Shown here piece by piece: positions 3,308-35,301 of a stretch of DNA of 40,000 nt. Origin of the DNA: Mesorhizobium argentiipisi (lineage in GTDB: Bacteria; Pseudomonadota; Alphaproteobacteria; Rhizobiales; Rhizobiaceae). Positions within the stretch are counted from its first letter, which is position 1; each line of letters starts with the position of its first letter. Made by a program: the position numbers and the translations under genes. The stretch lies in the NCBI RefSeq assembly GCF_037179585.1, contig NZ_JAPYKO010000004.1, positions 213,758-253,757 on the forward strand, in the 5' to 3' direction. A model generated the notes under the pieces. It made no database searches. It saw only the letters and a list, made by a program, of their open reading frames with translations, and had not been told where the DNA came from.

Positions 3308-4234
3308 AAGCCCTACCTTCAATCTCGATTTTGACGACGCTTGAGGCGTAACCGTTTGCATTTCGTCAACGCTATTCGCGAACGCTTCCAAGGCTTCGTC
3401 GAATGTGCCGGACTTATCAGCCAGGCCAGACTCAACCGCTTCGGCACCGCGAAACATGCCTGCTTCCGTAGCACGGATCTTATCCGCGTCGATTCCACGA
3501 TGTTGCGAAACAAGCTGCACAAACATTTCGCCGAGGGCGTCAACATCGGCCTGCAATGATGCCCTGGCGCGGTCGCTCAACGGCTCATGCGGGTTGCCGT
3601 CCGCTTTCTCGGCGCCGAAGAAAATGTAATTCCAGCGAACGCCGGCCATCTTGTCCGCTTCGCTCACGTCCACATGCGCGGCCAGACAGCCAATTGAACC
3701 GACCTCGCCCGTGGTCGGCACCCATATTTGCGAGGCCGAGCTAGCGATTGCGTAGCCGGCCGAGGCCGCCACTTCGTTGACATGGCACCACACCGGTATG
3801 CCGGTGGCTTCGCTGGCGCTGCGAATGAAGCGCGCCAGGTCAAAGCATCCGTTCGCCTCACCGCCGGGGGAATCAAGCTCAAGCATGAGCCCGCGCGTCG
3901 CGGGGTCGTGCATGATTTCAGTGACCGCATCGGACAGCGCGGAATAGCTGGTAAGGCCGGACTCGGAGTCCAGCCAGGAACCGCGCCGTATCAGCGTTCC
4001 GAGCACCGGCAGAACGGCGATACCGTTGTCGGCCATATAGCCGCCGCTTCGGAAGGCTCGCCCTACGCCGCCTCGGGCCTCGCGTTGCGGGCGCGGGATA
4101 TCGCTGACACTCACCGCCATGCCGTCAAGGATGCGGGGGCCAATCGCGGTCAGGATGGTGTTCGCCTTGCCGCGATGGATGAGCAAGGGCGTATCGAAAA
4201 GCAAACTGGCGACTAGCGGAAGGTCACGCGGCAT
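2894..4234 (-). CDS. S49 (SppA/ClpP-fold) head maturation protease fused to a scaffold-like C-terminus (lambda gpC/Nu3 type)
   Basis: The start chosen at ATG 4234 (MPRDLPLVASLLFDTPLLI) overlaps the portal stop by 11 nt. S49 features are present (ELDSPGGEANG, NEVAASAGYAIAS). A PAPAPAP linker precedes an Ala/Lys-rich helical tail. Confidence 0.85.
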   Translation of the reverse strand: MPRDLPLVASLLFDTPLLIHRGKANTILTAIGPRILDGMAVSVSDIPRPQREARGGVGRAFRSGGYMADNGIAVLPVLGTLIRRGSWLDSESGLTSYSALSDAVTEIMHDPATRGLMLELDSPGGEANGCFDLARFIRSASEATGIPVWCHVNEVAASAGYAIASSASQIWVPTTGEVGSIGCLAAHVDVSEADKMAGVRWNYIFFGAEKADGNPHEPLSDRARASLQADVDALGEMFVQLVSQHRGIDADKIRATEAGMFRGAEAVESGLADKSGTFDEALEAFANSVDEMQTVTPQASSKSRLKVGLMTKVLAQTPPAPVVEPEPAPAPAPAPVAPAPAAPAAVDTTAAAQEMERLLSAETARCEGLAAIAAQADRLGVTFNVGEAIKAKMSVADARSKVLDAAAAGDGENISPIAAPKAKAETSKVLDAAGKASAWAKAMKRK

Positions 4235-5759
4235 TTGGGATATCCTCCGGCGGGTCGTCTTCGTTGTCAGCGGGGTCGTCGTTCGCGGGCGGCGGCGGCG
4301 CGCTCGGCGCGGCTGGCGGCGCGGTTCCGTCCGTATCGAATACAAGCGGGGTCTTCCGCCCCGCCGCCTCGGCGCGCTCTTCCTCGATCTCGTCGTCCAC
4401 GTCTTCGCGGTCATAGCCACGTTCGGCAATGGATTGCGTGCGGCTCTTCAAGCCGCCCTTGATCGCTTCCCTCTCGGCCGCGATGTCCTTAGCCGGGTCA
4501 ATCCATTCCTGGCGCGGCGGAAGGTGGTCGCATGCCCAATATTCGGTCGGGTCTTCGTCATAGCCGGGAAGCTCGATAAGACCGGCCATCACGGCGCGCT
4601 CAACGAAGGCAACCCACACCGGGCGGCAAAGCTGAAAGATCAGCGTGTTGTTCTGCCACTGCGAAACGCGGCGGCGGAACCGGATAATGTCGGTGCGGAC
4701 GTTGGCGAAATTGCCCTTGGTCATATCGCCGGTGACGTAGGAATATGGCACCCCGAGGCCGGCGCAAATCTTCAAGATGGTGCGATACTGGAACGCCTCA
4801 TAAGACCCACCCACCTCGGCCGGCGCCGAAAATTTGATGTCCTTATCGTCGCCGAGGTCGATGATTGCGCCGGGTTCCATGCCGGCAATCGGCGTTTCGT
4901 CTTCGTCTTCGTCTTCGTTCACAGACATGGGGTTTTCACCCCGGCCGATCAGGAACGCGGTAAAGAGCGCGGCGTTTTTCTTGCGGTCGATTTCGGCGTC
5001 GTCGTAGATCTCAAGACCGAAGATTTTGACCAGCGCGCGGGCGATTCGGGGGACACCGCGGATTTGCCCGCCCTGGCGCCCGTCAAAGACGTGGAACACC
5101 TCGGAAGCCGGCACGCGGACGCGGTCGCGTGCGTTCGCGGAGTTCGGCGGCCGTTCATCGGTCGGGTGATAGCGCCAGAAATGATAAGCGACGCGGGCGC
5201 CGAGCAAGTTGAATTCGATGCCGGCGACCACGAAATTGCCGCCAGGTAGCGAGGCGCTGAATCCCATGTCCAGCATTTCGGTCGTCAGAATCTGCAACTG
5301 AAAAGGTACGGTCCACATATCGCCAAGCCGGCGATTGCGAAGGCGCACGAAGCACTCGCCCGCTAGATAGGCCTCGCGGGCGACCTTCTCTTGGATGCCG
5401 AAATAATCGGTATTGCCCTCGGCGTCCGCTTCGTCCGTCCACTTCAAGAACAGGTTGAGCAGCGCCGCCTTTGCGGCCTTCTTTCCCTTGAAGCGGGGGC
5501 GGGGCTTGATGCCATCGCCAACGGCCTGCGAGGCCCATTCGTCCACGGCGTTGCCGGCGTAACCATCGTTTTCGTAAAGCCAGCGGCCACGGGCGACCAA
5601 GGTCGGGCCGGCGGCTCGGATGGCAACATTGATATGGTTGCGGGACGGGTTGAAGCCGCGCAAGCGCCGGCCGTTGCCGGCCGCCTCAAATGAGTTCGTG
5701 CCGCCGCCCGCCACGCGGAAAGCATGAGCTACCCGCCGGATGCCTGTAAAAATGCCCAT
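4224..5759 (-). CDS. portal protein, lambda family
   Basis: 511 aa. The N-terminus is typical of lambda gpB-type portals (SFEAAGNGRRLRGFNPS...GRWLYENDGYA..AVD.W). The TGATG junction with the gpW-like gene shares one nucleotide. Confidence 0.9.
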   Translation of the reverse strand: MGIFTGIRRVAHAFRVAGGGTNSFEAAGNGRRLRGFNPSRNHINVAIRAAGPTLVARGRWLYENDGYAGNAVDEWASQAVGDGIKPRPRFKGKKAAKAALLNLFLKWTDEADAEGNTDYFGIQEKVAREAYLAGECFVRLRNRRLGDMWTVPFQLQILTTEMLDMGFSASLPGGNFVVAGIEFNLLGARVAYHFWRYHPTDERPPNSANARDRVRVPASEVFHVFDGRQGGQIRGVPRIARALVKIFGLEIYDDAEIDRKKNAALFTAFLIGRGENPMSVNEDEDEDETPIAGMEPGAIIDLGDDKDIKFSAPAEVGGSYEAFQYRTILKICAGLGVPYSYVTGDMTKGNFANVRTDIIRFRRRVSQWQNNTLIFQLCRPVWVAFVERAVMAGLIELPGYDEDPTEYWACDHLPPRQEWIDPAKDIAAEREAIKGGLKSRTQSIAERGYDREDVDDEIEEERAEAAGRKTPLVFDTDGTAPPAAPSAPPPPANDDPADNEDDPPEDIPNAA

Positions 5760-5974: not shown

Positions 5975-5978
5975 GACA

Positions 5979-7970: not shown

Positions 7971-8527
7971 GCGGAGTCCCCGAAGGTTCCGGCGTCCAGC
8001 GGTGCCCGCGTCTTGGCAAGCTCGGCCAGGGCGACGCGCATGTACCCTTCAAGCGCACCGGCGAGTCGCACCGGGTCCGCCTCGACCTCGGCCGCGATAT
8101 CCGAGGCGTGGCGGTTTGCGAAATTCAGCATGGCGGCGCGGAAGACCAGCATAAGCGAGCGGATGGCGCGGCGCGCTTCCTCGCGGTCGACCGTGGCTTC
8201 CTTCAACCGCTCAAGGTTGATCTTGGCGGCCTCAAGATCGACGGCCATACGCTCAACCTTGAGGTCGTATTCGCTGTTTTCCTCGGCGCCCTCGGCCGCC
8301 TCGCGAAGCTTCGATGTCTTCGCCGCCGGCTTCCGGCGTTGCTGGTTTGGATTGCTATTTGCAAACCATTGGACCCGCGCTTTGACCGCGTCGACGGAAC
8401 CGTCCGCCAGGATGACCCCGGCCAGGCTTCCGCGCTGTACTCTTTGCCTCACCGCGTTAGGCGTAACGCCCATTTCTCGGGCAAACGCGGCAAGGCTGAC
8501 ACCCTCAAGGTTTTTCCGGCCGCCCAC
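7964..8527 (-). CDS. terminase small subunit (N-terminal HTH)
   Basis: 187 aa directly upstream of and overlapping TerL. An HTH-like N-terminus (SLAAFAREMGVTPNAVRQRVQRGSL) is followed by a coiled region. GTG start. Confidence 0.65.
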   Translation of the reverse strand: MGGRKNLEGVSLAAFAREMGVTPNAVRQRVQRGSLAGVILADGSVDAVKARVQWFANSNPNQQRRKPAAKTSKLREAAEGAEENSEYDLKVERMAVDLEAAKINLERLKEATVDREEARRAIRSLMLVFRAAMLNFANRHASDIAAEVEADPVRLAGALEGYMRVALAELAKTRAPLDAGTFGDSAC

Positions 8528-8576
8528 TTTTTTTGATCCTAGCTATATACATGGCGCATATTCGACGGTATGTAAT

Positions 8577-8593
8577 GTTTGCGAATTGCAAAC
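8577..8593. promoter_or_regulatory. exact palindromic motif GTTTGC-GAATT-GCAAAC in the divergent TerS / DUF3489 intergenic region
   Basis: Read directly from the sequence. It is a member of the 17-bp motif family described in the findings. The 90-bp intergenic region is also where a lambda-type cos site would be expected. Confidence 0.5.
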
Positions 8594-8617: not shown

Positions 8618-9364
8618 ATGAAGTCCTTCAATGTGAAGTCGAATGCGAAGCGGTTTGCCAAGCAACTGGCGGGCAAGTTCCCCGGCTACATCGCTGATGA
8701 GCCGGTCGCGGTGAGCCCTGGCGCCCGCGAATGGTATCCCCATGTCGCCGCCCCGTCTAAGGTGCTGGCCGAGGGTATCCCCGCCGACATCGCTGCCGCC
8801 GCTTTCGTCAACGGCCGGCCCTATGATCCCGAGACGGCCGCCGCCTCGGCGGTTGAAATGCTTGCCAGCGAAACCAGCGGCAGCGTGCCGGGCGTGCTCA
8901 ACATCGAGGCCGAGGTCGCCAAGGTCGCGGACATGACGCCGACCGAGGTCGCTACCGCCACCAAGGCGAACAAGGCGAAGGTGAGCGAAGCCCGCAAGAT
9001 GACGCCGGCCGACATGAAGGCCGCCGTTGAGGACCTTCCGCCGACCAAGTCCACGCCCGAGGAAATCGAGGCACGCCGTGCCGCGCGGCGCCAGCGCATC
9101 GCGACCGAGGGTCCGAAGCCGGCGAAGGCGCCCAAGCAGACGAAGGCGGCTAAGATCATTGAGCTTGTGTCGCGCGAGAACGGCGCCACCTTCGCCGAGC
9201 TTATCGAAGGCACGGAATGGCAGGCCCATACCTTGCGCGGCTACATCGCCGGCACCCTTCGCAAGAAAGGCCACAACATCGTTTGCCGGAAGATCAAGGG
9301 TGAAGAAACGCGCTACTTGATCCCGGCGCCCGAGGTGGCGGCATGTGCGCGACGTCGGTTCTGA
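8618..9364 (+). CDS. DUF3489 domain protein
   Basis: ATG 8618 follows GGAAA. The C-terminus IIELVSRENGATFAELIEGTEWQAHTLRGYIAGTLRKKGHNIVCRKIKGEETRYLI matches the DUF3489 pattern common on alphaproteobacterial mobile DNA. Confidence 0.6.
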   Translation: MKSFNVKSNAKRFAKQLAGKFPGYIADEPVAVSPGAREWYPHVAAPSKVLAEGIPADIAAAAFVNGRPYDPETAAASAVEMLASETSGSVPGVLNIEAEVAKVADMTPTEVATATKANKAKVSEARKMTPADMKAAVEDLPPTKSTPEEIEARRAARRQRIATEGPKPAKAPKQTKAAKIIELVSRENGATFAELIEGTEWQAHTLRGYIAGTLRKKGHNIVCRKIKGEETRYLIPAPEVAACARRRF

Positions 9365-9423: not shown

Positions 9424-9906
9424 TCATGCTGGCCTTTGCCGCTGCATCACCCGCCATTCGTGCCAGATCAACACCATCACCACCGCGTCAAACACGGTCA
9501 GGACCAAAAGACCGGGGGAGTGGGTGTAGGACCAGCGGTAGACTTGGTAGACCATGAACGCTCCAAGCGCTATGAGCGAGGCAGGATACGACCACAACTT
9601 GCCTCGCAGAAGCCCGACGACCAACAGCAGTTTGATCAGGCCGTGGCTGAGGAGATAGAAGGCGTAGAATTCCTTGCTGGCGACCGAGAAACTGCTCGCC
9701 ATCTGCGACAGATGGCCCGCTATGAAATCGTTCGGGTCTTCGATCAACTCATCCTGTGTGAAGGCATTGACCCATGACGCAATCGCGCTCGTGGTGACGA
9801 AATAGAGCAGGACACCACCGAGACATTCGATCAGGGCGTGCGCACCCTTCAGCCAGACGCTGACTTCAAAAATCTGATGGATGCGGCGTTCGTTGACTTC
9901 TCTCAC
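9424..9906 (-). CDS. DUF2127-like integral membrane protein
   Basis: 160 aa with a GTG start after GAGGTGA. There are four predicted hydrophobic helices and the N-terminal IHQIFEVSVWLKGAHALIE pattern. Confidence 0.55.
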   Translation of the reverse strand: MREVNERRIHQIFEVSVWLKGAHALIECLGGVLLYFVTTSAIASWVNAFTQDELIEDPNDFIAGHLSQMASSFSVASKEFYAFYLLSHGLIKLLLVVGLLRGKLWSYPASLIALGAFMVYQVYRWSYTHSPGLLVLTVFDAVVMVLIWHEWRVMQRQRPA

Positions 9907-9945
9907 AAATCACCTCGCGGTTCACAACAACGGAAGCAACAACGA

Positions 9946-10488
9946 ATGGATGCAACCCTCACTCACTGGATCAACGCGGCGGCCGGGCTTCACCCGGTGC
10001 TCGACAAGGCAATGATCGGTATCTCGCAAATCGGTGTTCCCTTGATGGTGCTGGCGGTGGTCCTGCAATGGTGGGTGAAGGTCGACCGCCACCACGTTAG
10101 ACACGCGGCGCTGTCTTCGGGACTGGCGTTCCTGCTCGGGCTTGCGATCAACCAGTTCATCCTTTTGTTCGTTCATCGGATGAGGCCCTATGATGCCGGC
10201 GTGACGCATTTGCTGATCGCCCCCAGCGCCGACTGGTCGTTCCCGTCGGATCACGCGACCGCGACTGTAGCGATTGTCGCTGCGTTTGCGATGCAAGGTC
10301 TGCCGCGCCGGACGCTTGGCTTCGCTGTTCTGGCATTTCTGGTCTGCTGGTCGAGAGTCTACATCGGCACCCACTACCTCACTGACGTGATTGGTGGTGC
10401 TGCAACGGGCATCGCAGCTGCCAGTGTGGTCCGTTTGGCCTATCGCGAGAACTCCCGTTTGGACAGGCTGGTAACCAACATTCTTTAG
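9946..10488 (+). CDS. PAP2 family phosphatase (undecaprenyl-diphosphatase-like)
   Basis: ATG 9946 follows GGAAG. The three PAP2 motifs are present: HRMRPY, SFPSDHA and SRVYIGTHYLTDV. Multiple TM helices. Confidence 0.8.
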   Translation: MDATLTHWINAAAGLHPVLDKAMIGISQIGVPLMVLAVVLQWWVKVDRHHVRHAALSSGLAFLLGLAINQFILLFVHRMRPYDAGVTHLLIAPSADWSFPSDHATATVAIVAAFAMQGLPRRTLGFAVLAFLVCWSRVYIGTHYLTDVIGGAATGIAAASVVRLAYRENSRLDRLVTNIL

Positions 10489-10557
10489 AGCCGACCTTAC
10501 GGATTGGTATTATTTGTACGGTGGACGTTTCTCGAAACTGCGAGAAAATGAGCCACT

Positions 10558-10794
10558 ATGCCTACATTTTTCTTTGATGTTTCCGATGCCGGGGACGTCT
10601 ATCACGACGCACACGGAACCAGCCTCCCAAGCGAAGAGGCGGCCAAGATCAGAGGCTTCGCAATCGTCAGCAAACTTATGCTCCAAAAGGGCCGCACCGA
10701 GGGCGATGACGTAGTCTGTACAATCCGCGACATTACCGGCCACCAGATCATGCAGATTGCACTTGTGTCCGGAGCGCCCGTTGTCCGCGCTTAA
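10558..10794 (+). CDS. DUF6894-like small protein
   Basis: MPTFFFDVSDAGDVYHDAHGTSLPSEEAAKIRG matches the MP.yfFhv.dg....D..G.elpd..aA pattern of DUF6894. Confidence 0.5.
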   Translation: MPTFFFDVSDAGDVYHDAHGTSLPSEEAAKIRGFAIVSKLMLQKGRTEGDDVVCTIRDITGHQIMQIALVSGAPVVRA

Positions 10795-10980
10795 CCGTTG
10801 CGCTTTCGTCACCAATCCCGTCTTGCCGCGCTATTTCGTCTCGCAAGGCTCTGGGGGAAGCGGAGGAACGGGAAGGGGACGGGAACCAGACCCGTGGCGG
10901 CCCTACCCACCGCTGACGACGGAAGGAATTCGGAACTATTTTAGTAAATGCTGATTGAATCGCGTTCTTGCGAGTCAGTC

Positions 10981-11864
10981 ATGCGTCTTGTGTTCATTCC
11001 GCCAATGAAGCCCAAGCTCGTGAAGAGCCCACCCCTCGGCGACGACTGGATTCATGAGATCAAGCTGGACGGCTATCGAACGCAAGTCGTCATCAACAGC
11101 CCCGATGATATCCGCGCCTATTCGAGTTCCGGTGCGGACTGGACGAAACGTTACCTCGGCATCGTTGAGGCCGCCCGCGAGCTAGGCGTTGAGTCCGCCA
11201 TCATTGACGGCGAAGCCGTGGTGCCTGGCGACGATGGCCGGCCCGACTTCCACAAGATGCAACGGGTTATCCAGAAAGACCCGTACGCCGCCATCCTTGG
11301 CGCCTTCGATATCCTGCACCTCAATGGCCACGATTTGCGAGACATCGGCTGTAAGGCGAGGCGGGAAATGCTCTACAGCATCGTGAAGCCCGGCACCCGG
11401 ATTCAATTCAGCGAGGCGTTGCCAGGCGACGCCGCCTCGATCTTCTATCTGGTCGATCAAGCCGGGATTGAGGGCGTGGTGTCTAAGCGCGCTCATAGCA
11501 TCTATCGCAGCGGCCCGACTGCGAACTGGGTGAAGACGAAAAGTTACAAGCACACTGATCTTGATCTTGTCGGGGTCGAGCGCGAGGCCGGGAAGCCAAC
11601 CATTGCCAGGTTCGTGGAACCGGGCACCCACCATTATGCGGGGCCGCCGTCATCACCCTCGGCCGTGAAGCTCGCGAACGGCTATGGGCGAAGGTCAAGG
11701 CGAAGGCCGGCGGCGCCCCGCCAAGCGAGGCGATGCGAAAAAAATACCCGGCGACGCAATGGGTGAAACCTGGCTTGCGGGCCACAGTGAAACACTTGCG
11801 AGGCGAAGAGTTCTTGCGGCACGGGTCGGTTATAGGGTGGTCAAACGAAGCTACGAGCGGTTGA
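10981..11864 (+). pseudogene. ATP-dependent DNA ligase (LigD ligase-domain type) interrupted by a frameshift near 11640
   Basis: Frame 1 carries motif I EIKLDGYR, motif III IIDGEAVV, motif IV EGVVSKR and motif V WVKTK. After YAG at about 11640 the homology continues in another frame. My translation there is AAVITLGREARERLWAKVK...TQWVKPGLRATVKHLRGEEFLRHGSVIGW, with a stop at 11862..11864. Confidence 0.7.
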
Positions 11865-11917
11865 CTCTACATAAGATAACGCTAATGTTTTATTTTCGAA
11901 CAAGAGGGGGACGATCG

Positions 11918-12304
11918 ATGTCTATTCGTGCTTATCGTGACCTGTCCTTCGCACTTTCCCTGAGCGGGATCGACGACATAGCTTCGCAAGATGCATTTCT
12001 ACAAGAATTGAATGACGCGTATGATATTAAGTCAAATCCGGCGCTGGCGAAACCCGACGACGAAGAATTAAACGCCCTTGCGACACTTTTGCGCGCCTTA
12101 TTCGCCAAGTATGGTGTTTCGGATACGCAGGAGCAAGACTTTGCAATTTCTATTATAGGCGCTGTTGTCTTTCGTAATATCCACGACGATGCCGGGAAAT
12201 TCACGCCGTTTAACCCTGTTATTGTCGGGGCCGTTATTGCGGTTGGAGCCACCGTTGCGATTTACCTCGTCTGGAAGTATCTGGTTCGGTATCAGCCTCC
12301 ATGA
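11918..12304 (+). CDS. hypothetical tail-anchored membrane protein (low-GC moron)
   Basis: ATG 11918 follows the strong RBS AGAGGGGGA. 128 aa with a single C-terminal TM helix (PVIVGAVIAVGATVAIYLVW). The upstream part of track ORF 11684..12304 is read-through of the ligase remnant. Confidence 0.5.
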   Translation: MSIRAYRDLSFALSLSGIDDIASQDAFLQELNDAYDIKSNPALAKPDDEELNALATLLRALFAKYGVSDTQEQDFAISIIGAVVFRNIHDDAGKFTPFNPVIVGAVIAVGATVAIYLVWKYLVRYQPP

Positions 12305-12691
12305 TCTCGCGCCCGTGATATGTCGGCAGCATGCTGATGACCGCCACATGACGAAGTCTCACGGGCGCGCTATCGTCAACTGATTGATGTCGTTGTAGGA
12401 ATCCGCTGGGCTCGGGCACGCCGGGACCGGTGCGACGCATTCGCAAAATCAATGGATGATACACGCCGCGTATATTACAGGTATGCTTTTCCGGTTTTCA
12501 GACGCTAGAGAGAATGTGCGCCGCAGCGTCCCCCTCACCCCTGGCACCGCCGGCGGAGGACCCGCGAAATCGTAAGCGATTGATATGATTGATGTTTCGG
12601 CTCTTTGGCCCTCTGGCATTGATCCTTCCGCCGAGGGGTGCAGCGCGATAGGCCGAGGCCTGATGCATCAACGTTTGTGAAGGGTCGAGGA

Positions 12692-13473: not shown

Positions 13474-13503
13474 ATAAAGCCGGATTCGTTTGCGGTTCGT
13501 CAA
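13474..13503 (-). promoter_or_regulatory. candidate promoter TTGACG-N18-CTTTAT with GANTC in the spacer
   Basis: The minus strand reads GTTGACGAACCGCAAACGAATCCGGCTTTAT. It lies about 35 nt upstream of ATG 13437. It contains a motif-family copy at 13488..13504. Confidence 0.45.
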
Positions 13504-13582
13504 CATCCACGCTTCGCGGTTCGGCATGTATTTTTCCTGAAATCGTCCATACGCCCGAAAAATACAGCTAACCCGTTGTTTC

Positions 13583-13783: not shown

Positions 13784-13909
13784 CGATGTATACGTGTGGA
13801 CATGGCGTCATGGCCGAAAGAGTTGGCATTCTGCAAACTGGGCTCTTGCGCTTTCGATATTCGCAGCGTATATCAACGTTATCGAAACGCAAACGAACGA
13901 ATTGCCCCG

Positions 13910-15420: not shown

Positions 15421-15482
15421 AACACAAGGCTGGACCGCTCGACCTTTAAGCGAAAAAAGATCACATTCCGAGCGTTTGCATA

Positions 15483-15511
15483 TTGCAACCATGATATTCG
15501 CTATGTATATG
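15483..15511 (+). promoter_or_regulatory. candidate promoter TTGCAA-N17-TATATG (TG-extended) overlapping motif copy 15474..15490
   Basis: GTTTGCATATTGCAACCATGATATTCGCTATGTATATG, located 34 nt upstream of ATG 15545. Confidence 0.45.
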
Positions 15512-15544
15512 AGTGTTGTGGAAACGAAAACGAAGGCCGAAGCA

Positions 15545-20522: not shown

Positions 20523-20529
20523 CAATTTC

Positions 20530-20805: not shown

Positions 20806-20817
20806 GAGAATAAGATC

Positions 20818-21153
20818 ATGGCTGATGACAAGACTAGGCGGAACACCGTAGACATCCCGGCTAAGGCGGACCCGAACCGCTGCCCCTCGCACCCCGGCGA
20901 GCTTATCGCGGATCTGTTGGAAGACGCCGGCAAGAGCAAGATGGCGGTGGCCGAAATGCTCGGGATTTCCCGCCAGCAGTTCCATTCGGTACTAGCGGGC
21001 CGGAAGCCCGTAACGCCGGACATGGCGGCGCGCCTCGGGAAGCTCTTCGGGAACGGCCCCGGCCTCTGGCTACGCATGCAGGCGAACTTTGATGCCTGGC
21101 ACGCCGCCCGCGAGGTGGATGTAAGCGCCATCCCTACGATCAAGGCGGCCTAG
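20818..21153 (+). CDS. higA: HigA-type antitoxin (XRE-family HTH)
   Basis: RBS AGGAGA. HPGELIADLLEDAGKSKMAVAEMLGISRQQFHSVLAGRKPVTPDMAARLGKLFGNGPGLWLRMQANFD is the canonical HigA HTH pattern. Confidence 0.85.
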   Translation: MADDKTRRNTVDIPAKADPNRCPSHPGELIADLLEDAGKSKMAVAEMLGISRQQFHSVLAGRKPVTPDMAARLGKLFGNGPGLWLRMQANFDAWHAAREVDVSAIPTIKAA

Positions 21154-21187
21154 CCCTACCGGCCGCCTTCGAGATATAATTGTTTAA

Positions 21188-22399
21188 ATGATTCCATTCG
21201 GCAGACCTACGGGCCTGTTCGCGAGTCCGATGGCTGACTACCCGCAACTAGGGTTTAGTATGAAGGCAGTCCGCAAGGCGGGAGACCGCTTGGCGCAAGA
21301 CATCGTCTTTAATCAAGACATGACCAGCACTGACTTTGCTTCCGTTATAGAAACCTTCGCGGTGGCAAATAGCTTTCGGGATTCGCACGTGATGCCAATG
21401 CGCTCGGTGTTCTACTCCGTGCGCCATAAGCTCCGCCAATACGGTATTCGCGGCGACATGGCCGCAAGGCCGAAAAGGATGCCGTCTATTAGAAGGAAAC
21501 TCAGCAGCAGTACTATCAAGTTCGATCAAATGAATGATCTCGGCGGGTGCCGCGCGATCATGCACGACATTCGTGGGGTTCGCACCTTGATAGCGGCCAT
21601 CGAGGATTCCTTCCCGCATCCAATCAGGCAGCGATACCCATACATTGAGAGGCCGAAGGCGGACGGTTATCGCAGCCATCATATCGTCTTCAATTTCAAC
21701 CCGAGCGGCGCGGAACAGGTTGCGTTTGCAGGCAGACGGATCGAGCTACAAATCCGCACTCGCCTACAGCATTCATGGGCAACCGCTGTCGAGGCCGCCA
21801 GTCTATATCGCGGCGAAGATTACAAGCACGGCCAAGGCGACCAAGATTGGCTGCGCTTGTTTGAATTGGCGGGCGCGGAATTTTCGCATGTCGAGGAATG
21901 CCCAATTGTTGAGGGCATGCCCAACCACGACGAGCGCGTAAAAGAGCTTAAAGACCTAAACCGGAAACTTCGCGCGACTAGCGTTCTTGAGAACATCAAG
22001 AATGCCACCCATTTCGCCGAAACAAATCGGCATGATGCTGGGAAATATTTCCTGATTAGATATCGGAAAGACCACACCGTCGCCGTTGAGGGCTACGATA
22101 GCATTATAGTCGCGACGCAAGAGCTTGGTGACGCCGAATTCAGGATCGCGTCCGGTCAGGACGACGATAGGGTCGTGCTGGTTGAGGTCGGGAAGATCAG
22201 CAAGCTTGTGCAGATGTACCCGAATTACTTTGGCGACGTGTCCCTGTTTGTCAGCAATCTCGGGGAAATTTGCGAAGGCAGAAAGCCGGTAGAGTACAGC
22301 ATGGCGAAGCCACAAGTCGTGGCCTCTAAGCCACGCGAAGTCGGCAGTACCACGGCGCTCTACCGGCGATATACGAAATGGTTCGAGAAGAAGCGCTAA
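21188..22399 (+). CDS. RelA/SpoT-domain protein (toxSAS / CapRel-like) with an unassigned ~190-aa C-terminal half
   Basis: Nucleotidyltransferase signature: DLGGCRAI, GYRSHHIVF, ELQIRTRLQHSWATAVE. A perfect TATAAT (21175..21180) ends 7 nt before ATG 21188. ATG 21230 is an alternative start. Confidence 0.75.
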   Translation: MIPFGRPTGLFASPMADYPQLGFSMKAVRKAGDRLAQDIVFNQDMTSTDFASVIETFAVANSFRDSHVMPMRSVFYSVRHKLRQYGIRGDMAARPKRMPSIRRKLSSSTIKFDQMNDLGGCRAIMHDIRGVRTLIAAIEDSFPHPIRQRYPYIERPKADGYRSHHIVFNFNPSGAEQVAFAGRRIELQIRTRLQHSWATAVEAASLYRGEDYKHGQGDQDWLRLFELAGAEFSHVEECPIVEGMPNHDERVKELKDLNRKLRATSVLENIKNATHFAETNRHDAGKYFLIRYRKDHTVAVEGYDSIIVATQELGDAEFRIASGQDDDRVVLVEVGKISKLVQMYPNYFGDVSLFVSNLGEICEGRKPVEYSMAKPQVVASKPREVGSTTALYRRYTKWFEKKR

Positions 22400-23898: not shown

Positions 23899-23928
23899 AC
23901 TAAGCCCGAGTCGTTTGCGTTTCTTCAA
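23899..23928 (-). promoter_or_regulatory. candidate tRNA-Met promoter TTGAAG-N18-CTTAGT with GANTC in the spacer
   Basis: The minus strand reads GTTGAAGAAACGCAAACGACTCGGGCTTAGT and ends 8 nt before the tRNA 5-prime end. It is homologous to the 24372..24401 element. Confidence 0.45.
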
Positions 23929-23939
23929 CGGCCGCAACG

Positions 23940-24320: not shown

Positions 24321-24362
24321 AAAAAAAGCGGCCCGCCCTGGGAGGTCTATAGAGCGGGCCGC
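24321..24362 (-). terminator. strong Rho-independent terminator downstream of the primase gene
   Basis: Perfect 9-bp GC stem GCGGCCCGC / GCGGGCCGC (24354..24362 and 24328..24336) with a 17-nt loop. T7 follows on the minus strand (24321..24327). Confidence 0.75.
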
Positions 24363-24371
24363 AACATCACG

Positions 24372-24401
24372 ATAATCAACGAGTCGTTTGCAATTTGTCA
24401 A
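24372..24401 (-). promoter_or_regulatory. promoter-like element TTGACA-N18-GATTAT between the primase stop and the terminator
   Basis: The minus strand reads GTTGACAAATTGCAAACGACTCGTTGATTAT. It contains motif copy 24386..24402 and GAGTC at 24381..24385. Confidence 0.45.
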
Positions 24402-24404
24402 CGA

Positions 24405-30279: not shown

Positions 30280-30771
30280 TTACGCCGCCACCGCCTCGCG
30301 CTCGTCGGTAGCGATAGCGTCGCGGACCGCGCGGCGCTCGGAAGGGGTGCCCCGGCCAGTCGTCAAAGCGTCATTGAAACGGCAGTACGGCGCCCGGCTG
30401 TCGAGATTCCGCGGTGCCCCGCAAAACAGCGAAGTTTCGCGGTCGTAGTGTTCATGATGGCCCCAAAGCGGGAACTCGCACCCGCATGAGGTCAGGCGGC
30501 CACGGGGCACGCCGTCAAAGCCTGGCGCCTTCTCGGGGAATCTTGCTTTGAAAGCCTTCGGCGCCGGCCCCTCGACATGAGTCTTCGGCGCCATCGTCTT
30601 GTGAAAGCGGTTCGAACCGTGTCCACGCGGCCGGAACTTCTCGGGGTTGCGGCGAGCCAGGCCGTAAAGCTCTTCCGGGCTTGACCCGCAAAGCTCGGCG
30701 ATCTCGGCGCCGTTCATTCCTGTGGCCCAAAGGCGCGCGGCCTCGGCCTTGTTTTCGGCTGTCCATTTCAT
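30280..30771 (-). CDS. GcrA-like cell-cycle regulator homologue
   Basis: RBS GGAGAA. The N-terminus MKWTAENKAEAARLWATGMNGAEIAELCG and the C-terminus CGCEFPLWGH...SLFCGAPRNLDSRAPYC parallel the two conserved GcrA regions. Confidence 0.65.
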   Translation of the reverse strand: MKWTAENKAEAARLWATGMNGAEIAELCGSSPEELYGLARRNPEKFRPRGHGSNRFHKTMAPKTHVEGPAPKAFKARFPEKAPGFDGVPRGRLTSCGCEFPLWGHHEHYDRETSLFCGAPRNLDSRAPYCRFNDALTTGRGTPSERRAVRDAIATDEREAVAA

Positions 30772-30788: not shown

Positions 30789-30807
30789 CGTTTGCATTTT
30801 GCAAACG
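30789..30807. promoter_or_regulatory. perfect 19-bp palindrome CGTTTGCA-TTT-TGCAAACG between the methylase and the gcrA-like gene
   Basis: Read directly. GAATC (30785..30789) abuts it. It lies 18-36 nt upstream of ATG 30771. Confidence 0.55.
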
Positions 30808-30811
30808 CTTG

Positions 30812-32461
30812 TTACGCGGCAACGGCCTTCCGGGCGTTGATTTGCGAGACGTGGGCGACGGTGTCATCGCCGAAGAGCGGTAGGCCCTCGGCGGGCTCTA
30901 TCTCTGTCCGCGCACGTTTCTTCGTTTCCGGGCCGGCGAGCATAAGCGACATGCGCTTCGCAATATCGGCTTGGTATTCTTCCTCCCGCTCTATCAGGAT
31001 GGCGTTGCACCCTTCCCAAAAGGCGGCCTCGCCAGTGGTGCCGGTGCCAGCGAACGGGTCGAGCACGGTTCCGCCCTTGTGGCAGATGAGACGGACAAGC
31101 CAGCGCATCAGGTCCACCGGCTTAACCGTGGGGTGTTTTGAGCCGAGGCGGTCGTCGCCGTCCGCCTTCGCCGAATAGAAGAACCTGGACGCGCTGCCGG
31201 CGTCGAGCCGAGGCGGGAAGGGGTCACGCGCGCCAATCGGGTTATAGACGTTGTTCCGCTTCCGCTCGCCATGCTCGGGGCCTACGGCGCCCTTCTGGCC
31301 CGACGCATCGGGGAACGCGGCCACAACTTCCGCGCTGCCATCGTGCAGGATATTGGCCGGGTAGCGGCCGTCGACCGGGCGGGCCTCGCCCTCTTTCCCG
31401 AGGCCGGAATTCGACTCGTTCCATGTGTTGCCGCCGCCGGCCTTGCCGCCCCATCCCGTGGGCTTCTCGGCGTCAATGCGGCAAGCGTCCACGTTGATGC
31501 CGCCGGTTCCGTGGGCCAGGGTGTTTTCCGCTACGGTGCCAATCATCGGCTTGCGGGCCAGGCATATCGGTTCCCATGCCGGTTTAAGCGCGGTGCCCCA
31601 TCCATCCCATTCGGCGGCCTCGGGCGTCCCGTGCGAATAGATATCGCGCTCATAGGCGGGACGCTCTTCGCCCTTCCCGGCGCTGAGAAGCGCGCTGTTG
31701 CGCATATCGTTGACAAGGGTTTCAGTGCCAAGGAAATGGCCGAGGAAACCGCCCTTGCGGCGGAACGCCTTGTCGATCCGGCCGCGCAAGCCTTTGGACA
31801 CCTTGCGCTTGTCCCGGCTCTTCGCCCATTTGATAAGCCGGTCGTACCTGGCGCGCACCTCGGCCCGTTCGTCCAGCCATTGCCGGAACAGATGGTCGTC
31901 AATGCCCTTTGAAACGCTATGGTTCTTCGGGAAGCCGGTTCCGTAGCACCATGCCAGCATCCCGCCGAATTGGCTGTCTTCGATGCAGCGGAAGAACGCT
32001 TCAACCTGGGCCGACGAAAGGGTTTCGAGGAACCGCACAACGGGGGTGTCACTGGCGAGCATGTTGAGAATGTTGTCGCGGACTTCGAAGCCGGCGCGAG
32101 CGATGGCGGACGCCATGTCGTGATAAGTCCGGGTGCCCGAGAAGGCCACCAAGTAGCCGCCAGGTTTCAGCACGCGAAGCACCTTTGCCCATAGGTCCGA
32201 ACGGAAGGCGATATCGCCGCCGTCCCATGTCTTGCCCATGAAGCCAGCGCTAGACCTGGCAAACACGCCCGCGCTGCCTTCCTTCGGCTCGGACGGCGCC
32301 GCGTCTTCGGCGCCGAAGCGGGCCACAATCGAGGTGAGGTGGTAGGGCGGGTCGCAGCATACCGCGTCGACCGAGCCCTCGGGGATATCGTCAAGGCGGG
32401 CGAAGCAATCGCCGCCGAGTAGGACGACCCGGCCGTCCAGAAATTCCGTTCGGTTCTTCAT
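30812..32461 (-). CDS. beta-class N6-adenine (or N4-cytosine) DNA methyltransferase, CcrM/M.HinfI-like motif order, with a large central insertion
   Basis: ATG 32461 (MKNRTEFLDGRVV). DPPY is near the N-terminus (AVCCDPPYHL). HPTVKPVDLMRWLVRL and LDPFAGTGTTGEAA are near the C-terminus. Confidence 0.85.
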   Translation of the reverse strand: MKNRTEFLDGRVVLLGGDCFARLDDIPEGSVDAVCCDPPYHLTSIVARFGAEDAAPSEPKEGSAGVFARSSAGFMGKTWDGGDIAFRSDLWAKVLRVLKPGGYLVAFSGTRTYHDMASAIARAGFEVRDNILNMLASDTPVVRFLETLSSAQVEAFFRCIEDSQFGGMLAWCYGTGFPKNHSVSKGIDDHLFRQWLDERAEVRARYDRLIKWAKSRDKRKVSKGLRGRIDKAFRRKGGFLGHFLGTETLVNDMRNSALLSAGKGEERPAYERDIYSHGTPEAAEWDGWGTALKPAWEPICLARKPMIGTVAENTLAHGTGGINVDACRIDAEKPTGWGGKAGGGNTWNESNSGLGKEGEARPVDGRYPANILHDGSAEVVAAFPDASGQKGAVGPEHGERKRNNVYNPIGARDPFPPRLDAGSASRFFYSAKADGDDRLGSKHPTVKPVDLMRWLVRLICHKGGTVLDPFAGTGTTGEAAFWEGCNAILIEREEEYQADIAKRMSLMLAGPETKKRARTEIEPAEGLPLFGDDTVAHVSQINARKAVAA

Positions 32462-32462
32462 G

Positions 32463-32681
32463 CTAAAACAAGTCCCCTTGTTGCGGTTCGGGTGCCGGGG
32501 GCTTCGGCGCCGGGGGGTCCACCGGCTCGGCCTTGCGCACCGTTTGCATTTCGTCAACGCGATGCGCGTAGCATCGCCAATTCCCGAGGCGGCCAGCCAA
32601 AAGTTTGACGTTGTAACCGAAGCTCGCGGCGCCGCCGCACACTTCACAAACAAAATCCCCAGGGCCGGCGACTCGTGTCAC
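32463..32681 (-). CDS. small hypothetical protein (possible zinc ribbon), start uncertain
   Basis: GTG 32681 gives VTRVAGPGDFVCEVCGG...WRCYAHRVDEMQTV. There is no RBS. The upstream 60 nt of the track ORF contains a promoter-like motif. Confidence 0.35.
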   Translation of the reverse strand: MTRVAGPGDFVCEVCGGAASFGYNVKLLAGRLGNWRCYAHRVDEMQTVRKAEPVDPPAPKPPAPEPQQGDLF

Positions 32682-32768
32682 GATTGATATAATCCGATAA
32701 TCGTTGACAAAATGCAAACCATGTTCCCCGCCGGAACGCAAGGCCCCAAAATGGCCCCATTAAAAAGA

Positions 32769-33002
32769 TCAACTCGGAAGCAATTTCGCTAGGTCCACCG
32801 TGAGCCCCCTTTTTACCGCGATCTTAAGCAGTTTTGGCACATATGCGGCCGGAACAGTGCCCGCCATCCCCGGCGGCCGGCGCTTCGCGTTATCCCATCC
32901 GGCGATTGTGGAAGGGCTTAGGCTGAGTAACCGGGCGAGGTCCGCGCGTTTTCCGTTTGCAAACAAAAGAGTGACATATTGCAAAGGCGTGTTAACTTTC
33001 AT
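32769..33002 (-). CDS. Cro/YdaS-like HTH regulator
   Basis: 77 aa, divergent from the cI-like gene. GKRADLARLLSLSPSTIAGW is an HTH pattern as in the YdaS/Cro family. Confidence 0.55.
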   Translation of the reverse strand: MKVNTPLQYVTLLFANGKRADLARLLSLSPSTIAGWDNAKRRPPGMAGTVPAAYVPKLLKIAVKRGLTVDLAKLLPS

Positions 33003-33012
33003 TGCTGATACC

Positions 33013-33029
33013 GTTTGCTATTTGTTAAC
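33013..33029. promoter_or_regulatory. operator candidate GTTTGC-TATTT-GTTAAC flanked by direct repeats GCTGATAC (33004..33011, 33033..33040)
   Basis: Read directly in the 79-bp divergent cro/cI intergenic region. Confidence 0.5.
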
Positions 33030-33081
33030 AAGGCTGATACGGACTTGATTCGTTAAGTGCATGAGGGGAGTGTTGAGCGTA

Positions 33082-33711
33082 ATGACGAAGCCCGACGTCG
33101 ACTGGTTTCGCCGCAAGCTTGAAGAGCACCGGCTTTCGCAATCCGGCCTTGGCCGTATGCTTGGTATCGATAAATCGAGCATGAGCTTGCTTTTGGCCGG
33201 CAAGCGCAAACTCACTCTTACCGCCGCCGCCGATATGGCCCGCATCTTGGGCGTTACCGCGACCGAGGTCATGGAACGTTTCGGAGTTCGCGTTGACGGC
33301 ATCCGGGCCGGCGATGATGTCACGCCCCAAATGCTGCCCTTTGAGGGCTGGATTGATGAAAGCTCCCATGTGATCCCCGACTCGTCCGGGCGCCGCAAGC
33401 GCATGGTTGACGTGGGAACGAACGTTGAGCCCGGTTCCAGCGCTTTCCAGTGGCGGACGCCGCAAAGCAAAATGGACGTTCTGGACGGCTGGATAGTGGT
33501 GTCTGGCCCGAGGCGCGAGGCCGACGACAAGATGATCGGCCGGGGATGCGTGGTAGGCCTCAAGGGCGGCGACATCATGCTTCGGCTTGTCCGCCGGGGC
33601 TACTCGCCAGGTACGCACCTTCTCTTCGGCATCATGGGCACGCCGGACGTGACCGAAGGCGAGGTCGAGTGGTACGCGCCCATTGTGATGATGAAGCCCG
33701 CGACGGCCTGA
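33082..33711 (+). CDS. cI-like repressor (XRE HTH + LexA/S24-like C-terminal domain, catalytic residues unclear)
   Basis: ATG 33082 follows GAGGGGAG. The HTH is LSQSGLGRMLGIDKSSMSLLLAGKRKLTLTAAADMARILG. The C-terminal beta-rich domain follows the S24 layout, but GxSM is absent and the Lys position reads R. Confidence 0.65.
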   Translation: MTKPDVDWFRRKLEEHRLSQSGLGRMLGIDKSSMSLLLAGKRKLTLTAAADMARILGVTATEVMERFGVRVDGIRAGDDVTPQMLPFEGWIDESSHVIPDSSGRRKRMVDVGTNVEPGSSAFQWRTPQSKMDVLDGWIVVSGPRREADDKMIGRGCVVGLKGGDIMLRLVRRGYSPGTHLLFGIMGTPDVTEGEVEWYAPIVMMKPATA

Positions 33712-33768
33712 TACAGCGCACGTCCGGTTGATAATCTCAAATTCTATCAATCTGTCGCACTTTCCCGA

Positions 33769-33831
33769 TTGACGGCCTCGATAGCGTGTTTGCATATTAC
33801 AAACAGTTGGCAAAACGCAAACGAAGGATTC
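33769..33831 (+). promoter_or_regulatory. candidate early-left-type promoter (TTGACG at 33769..33774) with two tandem operator motifs
   Basis: TTGACG-N17-GCATAT. The motifs are GTTTGCATATTACAAAC (33788..33804) and GTTGGCAAAACGCAAAC (33806..33822). GATTC lies at 33827..33831 and ATG at 33839. Confidence 0.5.
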
Positions 33832-33838
33832 GGGGTAC

Positions 33839-34321
33839 ATGTTGGTTTCTACAGGCGGGGTTTATCGCTCCCAAGGCGGCAAAAAGGTCGGGCCGTTGCG
33901 CCCTTATCGGGAAGGTGAAGACGGGCCGGCGCGCGATATCCTGGGCCGCCTGGCATGGTTTGTAGCCGAGGGTATCGGCGCCTTCGATAAATTCGGCCAG
34001 TGGCTAAGCGGCGGTCTTGAAGACGCGAACCACCTTGTCGCGGAATGGGAAGGCCCCGCCGCCATCGACGGCCATATCGAGCGCGGCGCCGCCGACTACG
34101 ACCTCACCATCGGAACCCTGATCCCGCTCGGAACATTGCTGGCCGAGGTCCGTGTCGCCGGCACGGAAGTGCGGGTCGACGAGGCATGGATTGAAGTTCC
34201 GGGCCTCATGCTTACCCTCACCGGCCAACAAATCGGAACACTCGGAGTATACCACGCCGGCCGCTGGCGCACTTATCGCGCCATCATCGAAGCGGCGGCG
34301 CTCGCCGAGGTGCGCGCATGA
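33839..34321 (+). CDS. hypothetical protein, first gene downstream of cI; N-terminal domain paralogous to 18933..19316
   Basis: RBS GAAGGA. 160 aa. Its stop overlaps the exonuclease start (ATGA). Confidence 0.55.
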   Translation: MLVSTGGVYRSQGGKKVGPLRPYREGEDGPARDILGRLAWFVAEGIGAFDKFGQWLSGGLEDANHLVAEWEGPAAIDGHIERGAADYDLTIGTLIPLGTLLAEVRVAGTEVRVDEAWIEVPGLMLTLTGQQIGTLGVYHAGRWRTYRAIIEAAALAEVRA

Positions 34322-35301
34322 GCAAGGCGCCATATTCCGCCGAGGCCGAATGGTGTTGGCCGCGCAAAGAAAGCACCTGGCACAAACTCCGCAAGCCGGA
34401 CATCACCGCGACTAGCGCGGCGGCGCTCTTCGGGTGCTCACCCTACATGACGCCGTTTGACATGTTCCACCGGATGGCGGGGAACATCACGGTCGAGTTC
34501 GAAGAAACCGAGCGTATGCTTTGGGGTAAGCGTTTGCAAAATGCAATCGCCCTCGGCGTGTGCGCCGACAACGGATGGGAAATCGTAGACGCTCACCCCT
34601 TCCTCTACGCCAGGTCCAAGACCGTGGCCGGCATGGGGGCTTCGCCCGACTACATCATCACGGATCCCGCGAGGCCCGAACTTGGGTACGGCGTGCTTGA
34701 GATCAAGAACGTCGACCTGTTCGTGGCCGGCAAAGACTGGTCAGAAGACGAAGCCCCGCCGCACATCGAGTTTCAAGTGCAGCATCAGCTTGCCGTCACC
34801 GGCTTTATGTGGGGCGTTGTGGCCGGCCTTATCGGCGGCAACACTGTCAAGGCGTTCCGACGCGAGCGTGACGCCGAGGTGATCGCGGAAATCATCAGCC
34901 GCGTTGAAGACATGCACGGCCGAGTGAAGCGCGGCGAAGCCCCCGCGGCTGACTACCTCGCCGATTATGAAACCATCCGCACGCTTTACCGGCATGCCAC
35001 GGTGGCGAAGTCCTTCAACCTCGACCTGCCTGGCGAAGAGCCCGAGCTTGACCCGGCGAAGCTGCAGGAACTTTTCGCCGCGAAGTACGCCGCCGACATC
35101 GCGTTCAAAAACGCCAAGGAAGACAAGGAACGCACCTCGGCGGAATTGCTCGATTTCATCAAAGACACGGAAACCGTGTTCGGCGGCGGCTGGAAGCTTT
35201 CCGCCAGCACCGTGCACCGCGAAGCGTCGACCGTCACCTACCCCGCAACCTCTTATCGCAACCTTCGGCTTTCGAAGCCGAAGCCAAAGAAAGGCAATTG
35301 A
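34318..35301 (+). CDS. YqaJ-type viral recombinase exonuclease (lambda Exo-like PD-(D/E)xK)
   Basis: ITATSAAALFGCSPYMTPFDMFHRM, SPDYII and LEIKNV are typical YqaJ motifs. It is followed by RecT. Confidence 0.85.
   Translation: MSKAPYSAEAEWCWPRKESTWHKLRKPDITATSAAALFGCSPYMTPFDMFHRMAGNITVEFEETERMLWGKRLQNAIALGVCADNGWEIVDAHPFLYARSKTVAGMGASPDYIITDPARPELGYGVLEIKNVDLFVAGKDWSEDEAPPHIEFQVQHQLAVTGFMWGVVAGLIGGNTVKAFRRERDAEVIAEIISRVEDMHGRVKRGEAPAADYLADYETIRTLYRHATVAKSFNLDLPGEEPELDPAKLQELFAAKYAADIAFKNAKEDKERTSAELLDFIKDTETVFGGGWKLSASTVHREASTVTYPATSYRNLRLSKPKPKKGN

Follow-up and report, generated by a model that had tools for sequence, protein, structure and literature searches.

The window analysed here, that is the whole 40-kb stretch of Mesorhizobium argentiipisi DNA (60.5% G+C), is a lambda-like prophage. 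Virion and packaging genes, an accessory block of lower G+C content, a leftward early operon with a small zinc-finger open reading frame (ORF) and a rightward recombination operon follow each other from left to right (Table 1). Scattered among them we find 17 copies of a 17-bp inverted repeat, hereafter the 17-mer. We consider it likely, from the comparison of related sequences, that this repeat is the operator of the prophage's own lambda-cI-like helix-turn-helix (HTH) repressor. Each site is named below by the lowest coordinate of its 17-mer, and L-numbers are labels of the loci compared with the window, both relatives and unrelated phage loci. The window has no integrase gene. A megablast search with it against 50,697 phage records gave no match, and no cultured phage is similar to it in DNA.

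Table 1 Genes, copies of the 17-mer (putative operators) and second conserved element in the window
Feature	Position	Strand	Remarks
Capsid, protease/scaffold, portal, terminase large and small subunit genes	1.1-8.5 kb	leftward	
DUF3489 gene	8618-9364	rightward	
Lower-GC accessory block	9.4-23.8 kb		gpZ-like, SieB and DUF6011 genes; HigBA-like and RelA/SpoT-like from translations only
tRNA-Met gene	5' end 23890	-	between accessory block and early operon
Leftward early operon	33002 down to 24405	-	cro-like, zinc-finger ORF, methylase, GcrA-like, helicase, others, primase
GcrA-like gene, candidate GANTC reader	30280..30771	-	Pfam GcrA 17.7 bits, short of the 26.9 cut-off; alignment shows conserved motifs at both termini
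N6-adenine DNA methyltransferase gene	30812..32461	-	PF01555; CcrM equivalog model 56 bits vs 830 cut-off
Cro-like gene (77 aa), possible second binder	32769..33002	-	weak family matches only
cI-like repressor gene, proposed motif binder	33082..33711	+	HTH_3/HTH_31
Operon past cI		rightward	uncharacterised gene (ATG 33839), YqaJ exonuclease, RecT-like, HTH_17
Copy inside protease/scaffold gene	3354..3370	-	exact, GTTGACGAAATGCAAAC on minus strand; without -10-like hexamer downstream
Copy in 5' part of terminase small subunit gene	8350..8366	-	one mismatch; conserved in 5 relatives
Exact palindrome between divergent terminase small subunit gene (start 8527) and DUF3489 gene (ATG 8618)	8577..8593	.	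invariant in 6/6 aligned relatives
Promoter-embedded copy before 63-aa gene (ATG 13437)	13488..13504	-	TTGACG 13503-13498, GATTC 13483-13487, -10-like CTTTAT 13479-13474
Upstream copy of 13910 gene	13822..13838	+	exact; ends 6 nt before conserved CTTGCG -35
Downstream copy of 13910 gene	13878..13894	+	begins 4 nt past GTATAT -10; 15 nt before ATG
Copy over -35 region of 15545-gene promoter	15474..15490	+	alignment with relatives
Degenerate second copy, 15545 gene, past GTATAT -10	15515..15531	+	GTTGTGGAAACGAAAAC, 11.1 bits; GTTATCGAAACGCAAAC in relatives
Promoter-embedded copy ahead of tRNA-Met	23913..23929	-	TTGAAG -35, conserved GAGTC 23908-23912, -10-like CTTAGT 23904-23899
Copy 2 nt past primase stop	24386..24402	-	TTGACA -35, conserved GAGTC 24381-24385, GATTAT 24377-24372
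Exact palindrome in 40-bp gap between methylase stop (30812) and GcrA-like ATG (30771)	30790..30806	.	occupied likewise in L010, L032, L040, L050
Copy inside small zinc-finger ORF	32542..32558	-	exact; 80 nt upstream of methylase start (32461)
Copy ahead of zinc-finger ORF (GTG 32681)	32703..32719	-	exact; conserved GATTAT at 32694-32689
Copy in codons 13-18 of cro-like gene	32948..32964	-	one mismatch
Copy between divergent cro-like (ATG 33002) and cI-like (ATG 33082) genes	33013..33029	.	mismatched copy, aligned in relatives
First tandem copy, over -10 of early-right promoter	33788..33804	+	-10 GCATAT 33792-33797; -35 TTGACG 33769-33774
Second tandem copy, about +10 to +26 of early-right promoter	33806..33822	+	16 nt before 33839 ATG
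Copy in YqaJ-like exonuclease gene, codons 72-77	34532..34548	+	present in 9 close relatives and L025
Second conserved element	8545-8562	-	
Second conserved element	13856-13873	+	
Second conserved element	15493-15510	+	
Second conserved element, weaker match	12458-12475	+	

Sequence, counts and conservation of the 17-mer

The consensus of the 17-mer is GTT(T/G)(G/A)C, an A/T-rich 5-bp core and G(C/T)(C/A)AAC. It is an inverted repeat of 6-N5-6 type, with half-site centres 11 bp apart and a dyad-symmetric position weight matrix (PWM). The half-sites occur in all pairings (TG/TG, GA/TG and GA/GA), and perfect palindromes are found twice in the window and many times in relatives. From 3354 to 34548 the sites span about ten transcription units.

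A previous model reading of the letters and their translations (the sequence-only reading) had described GTTTGC-N5-G(C/T)(A/C)AAC as a phage-specific motif with 15 or more copies, mostly at operon starts. All 15 copies that it listed are present where it placed them: 8577 and 30790 are indeed exact palindromes, and 3354, 13488, 24386, 32542 and 32703 are exact GTTTGC-N5-GTCAAC. The total is 17, with the addition of 13822 (exact) and 32948 (one mismatch), both conserved in relatives. As to placement, 12 of the 17 are intergenic and the other 5 intragenic (3354, 8350, 32542, 32948 and 34532).

The window has 9 distinct sites that match GTTTGC-N5-GYMAAC exactly, where 100 dinucleotide shuffles lead one to expect 0.01; with up to two mismatches, there are 40 strand-matches against 12 expected. 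The PWM scan with shuffled controls, which the sequence-only reading had proposed, sets the 17 sites clearly apart: the symmetric matrix scores them at 17.7-28.1 bits and the runner-up at 13.0 bits, while shuffled sequence yields 0.29 matches at 14 bits or more. The motif was not picked up by a count of exact 5-mer palindromes, and a literature search for the motif strings found no paper mentioning it.

Relatives of the prophage were gathered through homologues of cI, the GcrA-like protein, the terminase large subunit (TerL), YqaJ, primase and helicase. Scans based on cI found none in viral contigs, where a single sequence served as query, one locus in GTDB genomes and one 2.5-kb fragment in metagenomes; it is the helicase profile search that turned up the heteroimmune relatives. 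Sites occupy syntenic places in more than 12 related prophages, down to 37-41% identity in cI and 54% G+C (L025/L010, L032, L040/L050). The places kept in the leftward early operon are the one after primase, the methylase/GcrA-like gap, two at the zinc-finger ORF (one inside it, one preceding it) and the cro 5' end. Elsewhere, they are the cro/cI gap, the tandem pair after cI, the inside of YqaJ, the gap between the terminase small subunit (TerS) and DUF3489 genes, the TerS 5' end and the protease/scaffold gene. TerS was assigned through phrog_57. In total, the loci of this family hold 145 matches in 326 kb (4.45 per 10 kb); unrelated phage loci hold 1 in 97 kb (0.10 per 10 kb), and the host flanks 0 in 11 kb.

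At the 5 intragenic sites, third-codon positions within the half-sites are invariant in 14 of 20 cases, as compared with 120 of 279 in the flanks (Fisher p = 0.02). This synonymous-site excess gives modest support to selection on the DNA itself. The half-sites of 3354 are conserved in L011, L012, L013, L014 and L016 while the spacer varies. The same gene (2894-4429) contains an in-frame internal ATG at 3307 (minus strand; MTKVLAQ...), 47 nt downstream of 3354; by analogy with lambda Nu3 within C, it could start a nested scaffold protein.

According to the sequence-only reading, the motif was also missing from host-like DNA right of 37.5 kb. No site indeed lies beyond 34548, but the stretch from 37.5 to 38.8 kb is not clearly host: it differs between sister prophages and probably represents cargo of the phage. 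What is common to the sister prophages in L001, L028 and L004 is the right flank, which begins at about 38816 beside tRNA-Thr (38964-39039); they therefore use one and the same insertion locus.

The cI-like repressor and its recognition helix

The N-terminal domain of the cI-like protein belongs to HTH_3/HTH_31 and has its best solved-structure match in the N-terminal domain of lambda cI (PDB profile, 1LLI). It aligns by hhalign with lambda cI residues 23-78 (E = 2.4e-5), and AlphaFold2 predicts five helices for it, at pLDDT 62-89. The whole protein is 100% identical to a regulator of M. argentiipisi. Its distant homologues, at 26-31% identity, carry the annotation of cI-like repressor in phages of Burkholderia, Ralstonia and Klebsiella.

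Across the family, the motif changes with helix 3 of this domain. The helix x-x-S-x-(M/L)-S-L-L-L-x-G-K-R, found in the window, L025, L032 and L040, goes with the canonical motif. In L043, with S-K-S-L-L-S-L-V-L-D-G-K-R, near-canonical sites are kept, and the early operon has neither the methylase nor the GcrA-like gene. In L045, with E-R-S-L-M-S-L-I-F-A-G-K-R, the half-sites have drifted (GATGAC, GATTGC, GTTTAC).

Two heteroimmune relatives go further. L044 shares YqaJ (61%), RecT (61%) and helicase (66%) with the window, and helix 3 of its cI-family repressor is altered to N-R-S-T-I-S-R-V-F-Q-G-G-R (NRSTISRVFQGGR vs DKSSMSLLLAGKR). Its 21 kb contain no canonical site. They contain instead three perfect copies of GTTGCC-N5-GGCAAC, two in the interval from the repressor gene to the YqaJ operon and a third that precedes the repressor gene (8408-8424, 8507-8523 and 9324-9340); the window has none. 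With only three copies, all beside the repressor gene, L044 shows that genome-wide dispersal is not universal in the family. In L048, helix 3 reads D-P-A-A-I-T-L-M-L-R-G-D-R (DPAAITLMLRGDR), and GTTGAG-N5-CTCAAC stands right after the repressor gene and at three more places, that is 4 copies against 0.55 expected (among them 2837-2853 and 11215-11231).

L044, L048 and the window thus have the outer GTT...AAC and the geometry in common, and at syntenic sites the inner bases change with the recognition helix. A constant frame with inner bases tracking helix 3 is what marks a repressor-operator pair. With half-sites that are inverted and spaced by about one helical turn, dimeric binding of the repressor is probable.

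Promoters, GANTC sites and other candidate binders

The placement of the 17-mer relative to promoter elements varies. It is found over the -35, over the -10, at the +1 and downstream of it, in small intra-operon gaps and inside genes; for six window sites, within operons or within genes, there is no -10. Repressor operators typically show such a range of positions; a promoter element or an activator site does not.

The immunity region has the classic layout, with one site between the divergent cro-like and cI-like genes and the tandem pair over the early-right promoter. The latter is near-consensus, TTGACG-N17-GCATAT (33769-33797); it lies right after cI, under the 33788/33806 pair, and is followed by a Shine-Dalgarno sequence and the 33839 ATG. 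The same unit of promoter and tandem pair occurs after cI in L025, L037 and L043. In the accessory block, 13878 and the degenerate 15515 begin 4-5 nt past a conserved GTATAT -10, and their partners lie upstream of the -35 (13822) and over it (15474).

Two further elements accompany these sites. The direct repeats CTGATAC at 33006-33012 and 33035-33041 flank the cro/cI copy; relatives have TGATA(C/T) and L025 has TTGATACGGTTTGATAC. A second conserved element, GA(A/T)AT(T/G)CGC-N3-GTATAT, is matched 5 times where 0.2 matches would be expected, and relatives preserve it almost unchanged. In the promoters of TerS, of the 13910 gene and of the 15545 gene it makes up both spacer and -10, and it may mark a promoter class of its own, possibly late or activator-dependent.

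The sequence-only reading had seen in the motif both a -35 element and an operator for a dimeric HTH protein. Its three -35/-10 assignments are correct as read: TTGACG-18-CTTTAT at 13503..13474, TTGAAG-18-CTTAGT at 23928..23899 and TTGACA-18-GATTAT at 24401..24372. At 13488, 23913 and 24386 the GTTGAC or GTTGAA half provides TTGAC(R), and the 18-nt spacing to the -10-like hexamer is kept in relatives while the hexamer itself drifts in sequence. Ahead of tRNA-Met, the 5' end of the tRNA lies 8 nt past the hexamer, in the window and in the distant relative L032 alike. As for the fit to sigma-70, 24401..24372 matches at 10 of 12 positions and 33769..33797 is clear; 13488 and 23913 are weaker, and the start sites are predicted. 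Both halves of the idea are thus supported, the operator in general (varied positions, covariation with helix 3) and the promoter for the subset 13488, 23913 and 24386.

The pentamer GANTC, for which the CcrM methylase is specific, is depleted about twofold in the window (79 against 167 expected). Yet at 4 of the 17 sites it directly adjoins the GTTTGC arm, each time at the identical offset of -5 (13483, 23908, 24381 and 30785); the other 13 have no GANTC. In Caulobacter, YGAKTCK is the sequence preferred by GcrA, whose targets gather near -20 (PMC4647560); promoters that depend on GcrA/CcrM have GANTC no more than 40 bp from the start, near -20 or at +2 to +30. The CGAGTCG at 23908 and 24381, belonging to sites 23913 and 24386, fits this preference, is invariant in relatives and falls at about -20 to -16 of the predicted promoters; 13488 and 30790 fit in part. 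This suggests that a subset of promoters may also be responsive to methylation and to GcrA.

It is possible to push this combination further and to see in the 17-mer a dual switch, a repressor operator that embeds a lytic -35 and is, in a subset, fused to a GANTC near -20 read by the phage GcrA-like cofactor. We hold this extension to be doubtful. If true, it would join immunity-repressor control to CcrM/GcrA cell-cycle methylation in a temperate phage, for example so that tRNA, accessory genes or a short RNA would be expressed at a set time following induction or replication.

One may also ask if the motif is mainly a promoter module for host RNA polymerase, with GTTGAC as the -35, GCAAAC and GANTC read by the GcrA-like protein after methylation, and no repressor at all. 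The constant 18-nt geometry kept in relatives, the position of the tRNA-Met 5' end, the fixed GANTC offset in spite of the overall depletion and the invariant CGAGTCG at the position class reported for GcrA (PMC4647560) would all fit, as would the GTTGAC half lying upstream at most asymmetric sites. Most sites, however, cannot be promoters. A promoter does not fit at 30790: from this site it is 5 nt back to the methylase stop and 18 nt on to the GcrA-like ATG, and in L010 and L032 the orthologous sites stop 14-22 nt short of the start codon; in each case the interval before the start codon holds the Shine-Dalgarno sequence. The copies at 33788 and 33806 lie over the -10 and downstream of the start of a separate, better promoter, and the intragenic copies 3354, 32542, 8350 and 34532 have no A/T-rich hexamer downstream. 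GCAAAC, the most invariant half, would fall in the promoter spacer, which sigma-70 does not read. GANTC is missing from 13 of 17 sites; the motif is present in L043, which has neither a GcrA-like nor a methylase gene, and absent from L044, which has a GcrA-like gene. The predicted transcript of 24386 would run directly into a terminator hairpin, and the change of the motif together with helix 3 of the repressor is left unexplained. We judge this module unlikely.

The terminator in question is strong, with a 9-bp GC stem (24362-24354 with 24336-24328) and a T7 run; together with the -10 ahead of it, it takes up 24321-24377 (minus strand). The transcript from 24386 would be a hairpin RNA of only about 45 nt, which could be a small RNA; or the site may have another role at the operon end.

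Improbable, too, is the possibility that another phage protein (Cro-like, HTH_17 Xis-like, DUF3489 or zinc-finger) binds the 17-mer as an activator or second repressor, and that the cI-like protein reads something else. The HTH_17 and YqaJ/RecT proteins have homologues in all motif-bearing relatives examined, and sites directly precede the DUF3489 and zinc-finger genes; however, an HTH_17 homologue (46%) is also found in the motif-less L044, sites over the -10 and +1 speak against a pure activator, and it is the cI-family N-terminal domain alone whose changes accompany those of the operator. In lambdoid phages, Cro and cI share operators. By this analogy, the Cro-like protein may share sites with the cI-like protein here, or bind a subset of them. 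As an essential binder it was rejected, with no homologue in the motif-bearing L032 (tblastn and ORFs) and no ORF of at least 70 aa at its position in L010/L025. L043 and L044, as said, have either the motif or the GcrA-like gene, and the GcrA-like protein was rejected as binder of the 17-mer. The sequence-only reading had put forward the cI-, Cro- and GcrA-like proteins alike for binding tests: the first stands, as the motif covaries with its helix 3, and the other two are unlikely to be essential because their presence and absence are uncoupled from the motif.

It is very unlikely that the 17-mer serves a transcription factor of the host or is an element of structural or repeat type (RNA hairpin, packaging or replication signal, small mobile repeat). 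Palindromic copies could fold as a 6-bp hairpin, and one site lies beside the terminase genes and another beside the primase gene; but the GTCAAC variant breaks two stem pairs with no compensation, host flanks and unrelated phage DNA have next to no sites, the flanks of different copies are unrelated, which argues against a mobile repeat, and a dispersal over 31 kb is unlike a single packaging or origin site. Known consensus sequences are GTTC-N7-GTTC for LexA, TTAA-N7-TTAA for CtrA, TTGA-N6-TCAA for FNR/FixK, GG-N10-GC for sigma-54 and GCAAAC·GTTTGC for PurR-type sites; compared by eye, all of them differ from the 17-mer in spacing or arm order.

Several observations weigh against the operator reading itself. 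The PWM was trained on the same 17 window sites, so its statistics are partly circular; for this reason the clear score gap and the outside controls count for more than the PWM counts. The C-terminal domain of the cI-like protein has no Peptidase_S24/LexA-like signature in a family scan, hhalign aligns the N-terminal domain only, and AlphaFold2 models the C-terminal ~140 residues at an unreliable pLDDT of about 30. With this domain unrecognised and poorly modelled, the symmetry of the DNA is the sole argument for dimerisation, and induction might go either through cleavage of the RecA type or through an antirepressor. The covariation comes from two heteroimmune relatives, L044 and L048, and no motif could be identified for L046 (cI 29% identical). 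The synonymous-site test does not go below p = 0.02. Finally, the GTTGxx half is upstream at 7 of 8 asymmetric window sites and at 6 of 6 L032 sites of known direction, though many sites are symmetric, and three or four sites resemble genuine promoters; part of the constraint may come from RNA polymerase and not from the repressor.

Taking the 17-mer as the operator, we propose the following scheme. In a lysogen, the cI-like repressor would occupy about 17 operators, at almost every transcription unit, and keep the whole prophage silent: early-right, early-left, packaging/late, the DUF3489 gene, several accessory genes and the phage tRNA. Promoters would be occluded where a site overlaps the -35, the -10 or the start, and RNA polymerase would be kept off those promoters whose -35 is the GTTGAC half-site (13488, 23913 and 24386). 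At the intra-operon and intragenic sites 30790, 32542, 3354, 8350 and 34532, the bound repressor would probably act as a roadblock.

Some neighbouring genes deserve mention. The small Cys-rich (zinc-finger) ORF at 32463-32681 (minus strand) ends in QGDLF, is conserved down to L010 and L032 and is left uncalled in the annotations of several relatives; its GTG start would coincide with the first nucleotides of a leaderless transcript driven by the 32703 site. In the accessory block, at 9838-12304 and 20512-22399, translations seem to include a PAP2-like membrane protein, a short ATP-dependent ligase-like ORF (KxDG), a HigB/HigA-like pair and a RelA/SpoT-like protein. In L005 (2782-5298), the helicase orthologue of 838 aa has intein/homing-endonuclease domains (Hom_end, LAGLIDADG), with an extra C5 methylase gene inserted alongside.

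Comparison with other phage immunity systems

These results provide a testable regulatory map, with an operator, its likely repressor and about ten promoter regions, for an uncharacterised Mesorhizobium prophage family without a cultured relative. At least three immunity specificities appear in it, GTT(T/G)(G/A)C, GTTGCC and GTTGAG, and the pairs of helix 3 and half-site constitute a small natural dataset for HTH recognition rules. As a marker, the motif can help to find and delimit such prophages in the genomes of rhizobia and to predict how inoculant strains fall into groups of superinfection immunity.

In sequence and in the layout of the immunity region, the likeness is to lambda OL/OR. 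The sites are pseudo-palindromes of 17 bp whose arms measure 6 bp; they stand over early promoters and between a cro-like gene and a divergent cI-like one. The N-terminal domain of the repressor can be aligned with that of lambda cI, and operator specificity tracks the recognition helix (L044, L048; heteroimmunity). Unlike the 3 + 3 sites of lambda, there are 17 over 31 kb here, also inside genes and at late, accessory and tRNA units. The cI gene points the same way as the recombination operon, no likeness to S24 is recognisable in the C-terminal domain, and some relatives have no cro.

In number and dispersal, the likeness is to other phages. The c repressor of the Streptomyces phage phiC31 binds 17-bp conserved inverted repeats, the CIRs, at many early-region loci; that phage, its host and its repressor are nevertheless unrelated to those described here.

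P1 C1 acts at 22 dispersed 17-bp operators with the consensus ATTGCTCTAATAAATTT, asymmetric and each controlling a separate operon (PMC8546580). Here, too, more than 10 operators of 17 bp would be scattered over the genome at separate operons. The P1 operator is asymmetric, whereas ours has dyad symmetry; P1 is a plasmid prophage of enterobacteria, and the repressor described here matches the HTH_3/lambda cI families, C1 being set apart by family match and not by direct comparison.

The stoperators of Cluster A mycobacteriophages (L5/Bxb1) are found by the dozen genome-wide, mostly outside promoters and oriented with transcription, and block elongation; their motif drifts with the repressor across relatives (PMC6550527, PMC9283540). 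Our prophage has intra-operon and intragenic sites, an orientation bias among its asymmetric sites, though many sites are symmetric, and a motif that drifts with cI divergence. Stoperators, in contrast, are 13-14 bp long, asymmetric and bound by a monomeric two-domain repressor, not 17-bp inverted repeats. The host phylum and the repressor fold family also differ, and for the 17-mer an elongation block is a prediction.

With Caulobacter GcrA/CcrM promoters, the prophage has in common GANTC at a fixed offset at four sites, two of them fitting YGAKTCK, and the possession of a GcrA-like protein and an N6-adenine methylase. It differs in that only 4 of 17 sites are concerned and the 17-mer itself has no GANTC; the GcrA-like match is below the Pfam threshold, and the methylase is far from the CcrM equivalog.

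Altogether, a lambda-cI-type and probably dimeric repressor would appear capable of running a genome-wide operator network, otherwise known from P1, Cluster A mycobacteriophages and phiC31. The system is lambda-type in sequence logic and layout, and like P1, stoperators and phiC31 in number and dispersal: it would belong to the phage immunity operators of dispersed type.

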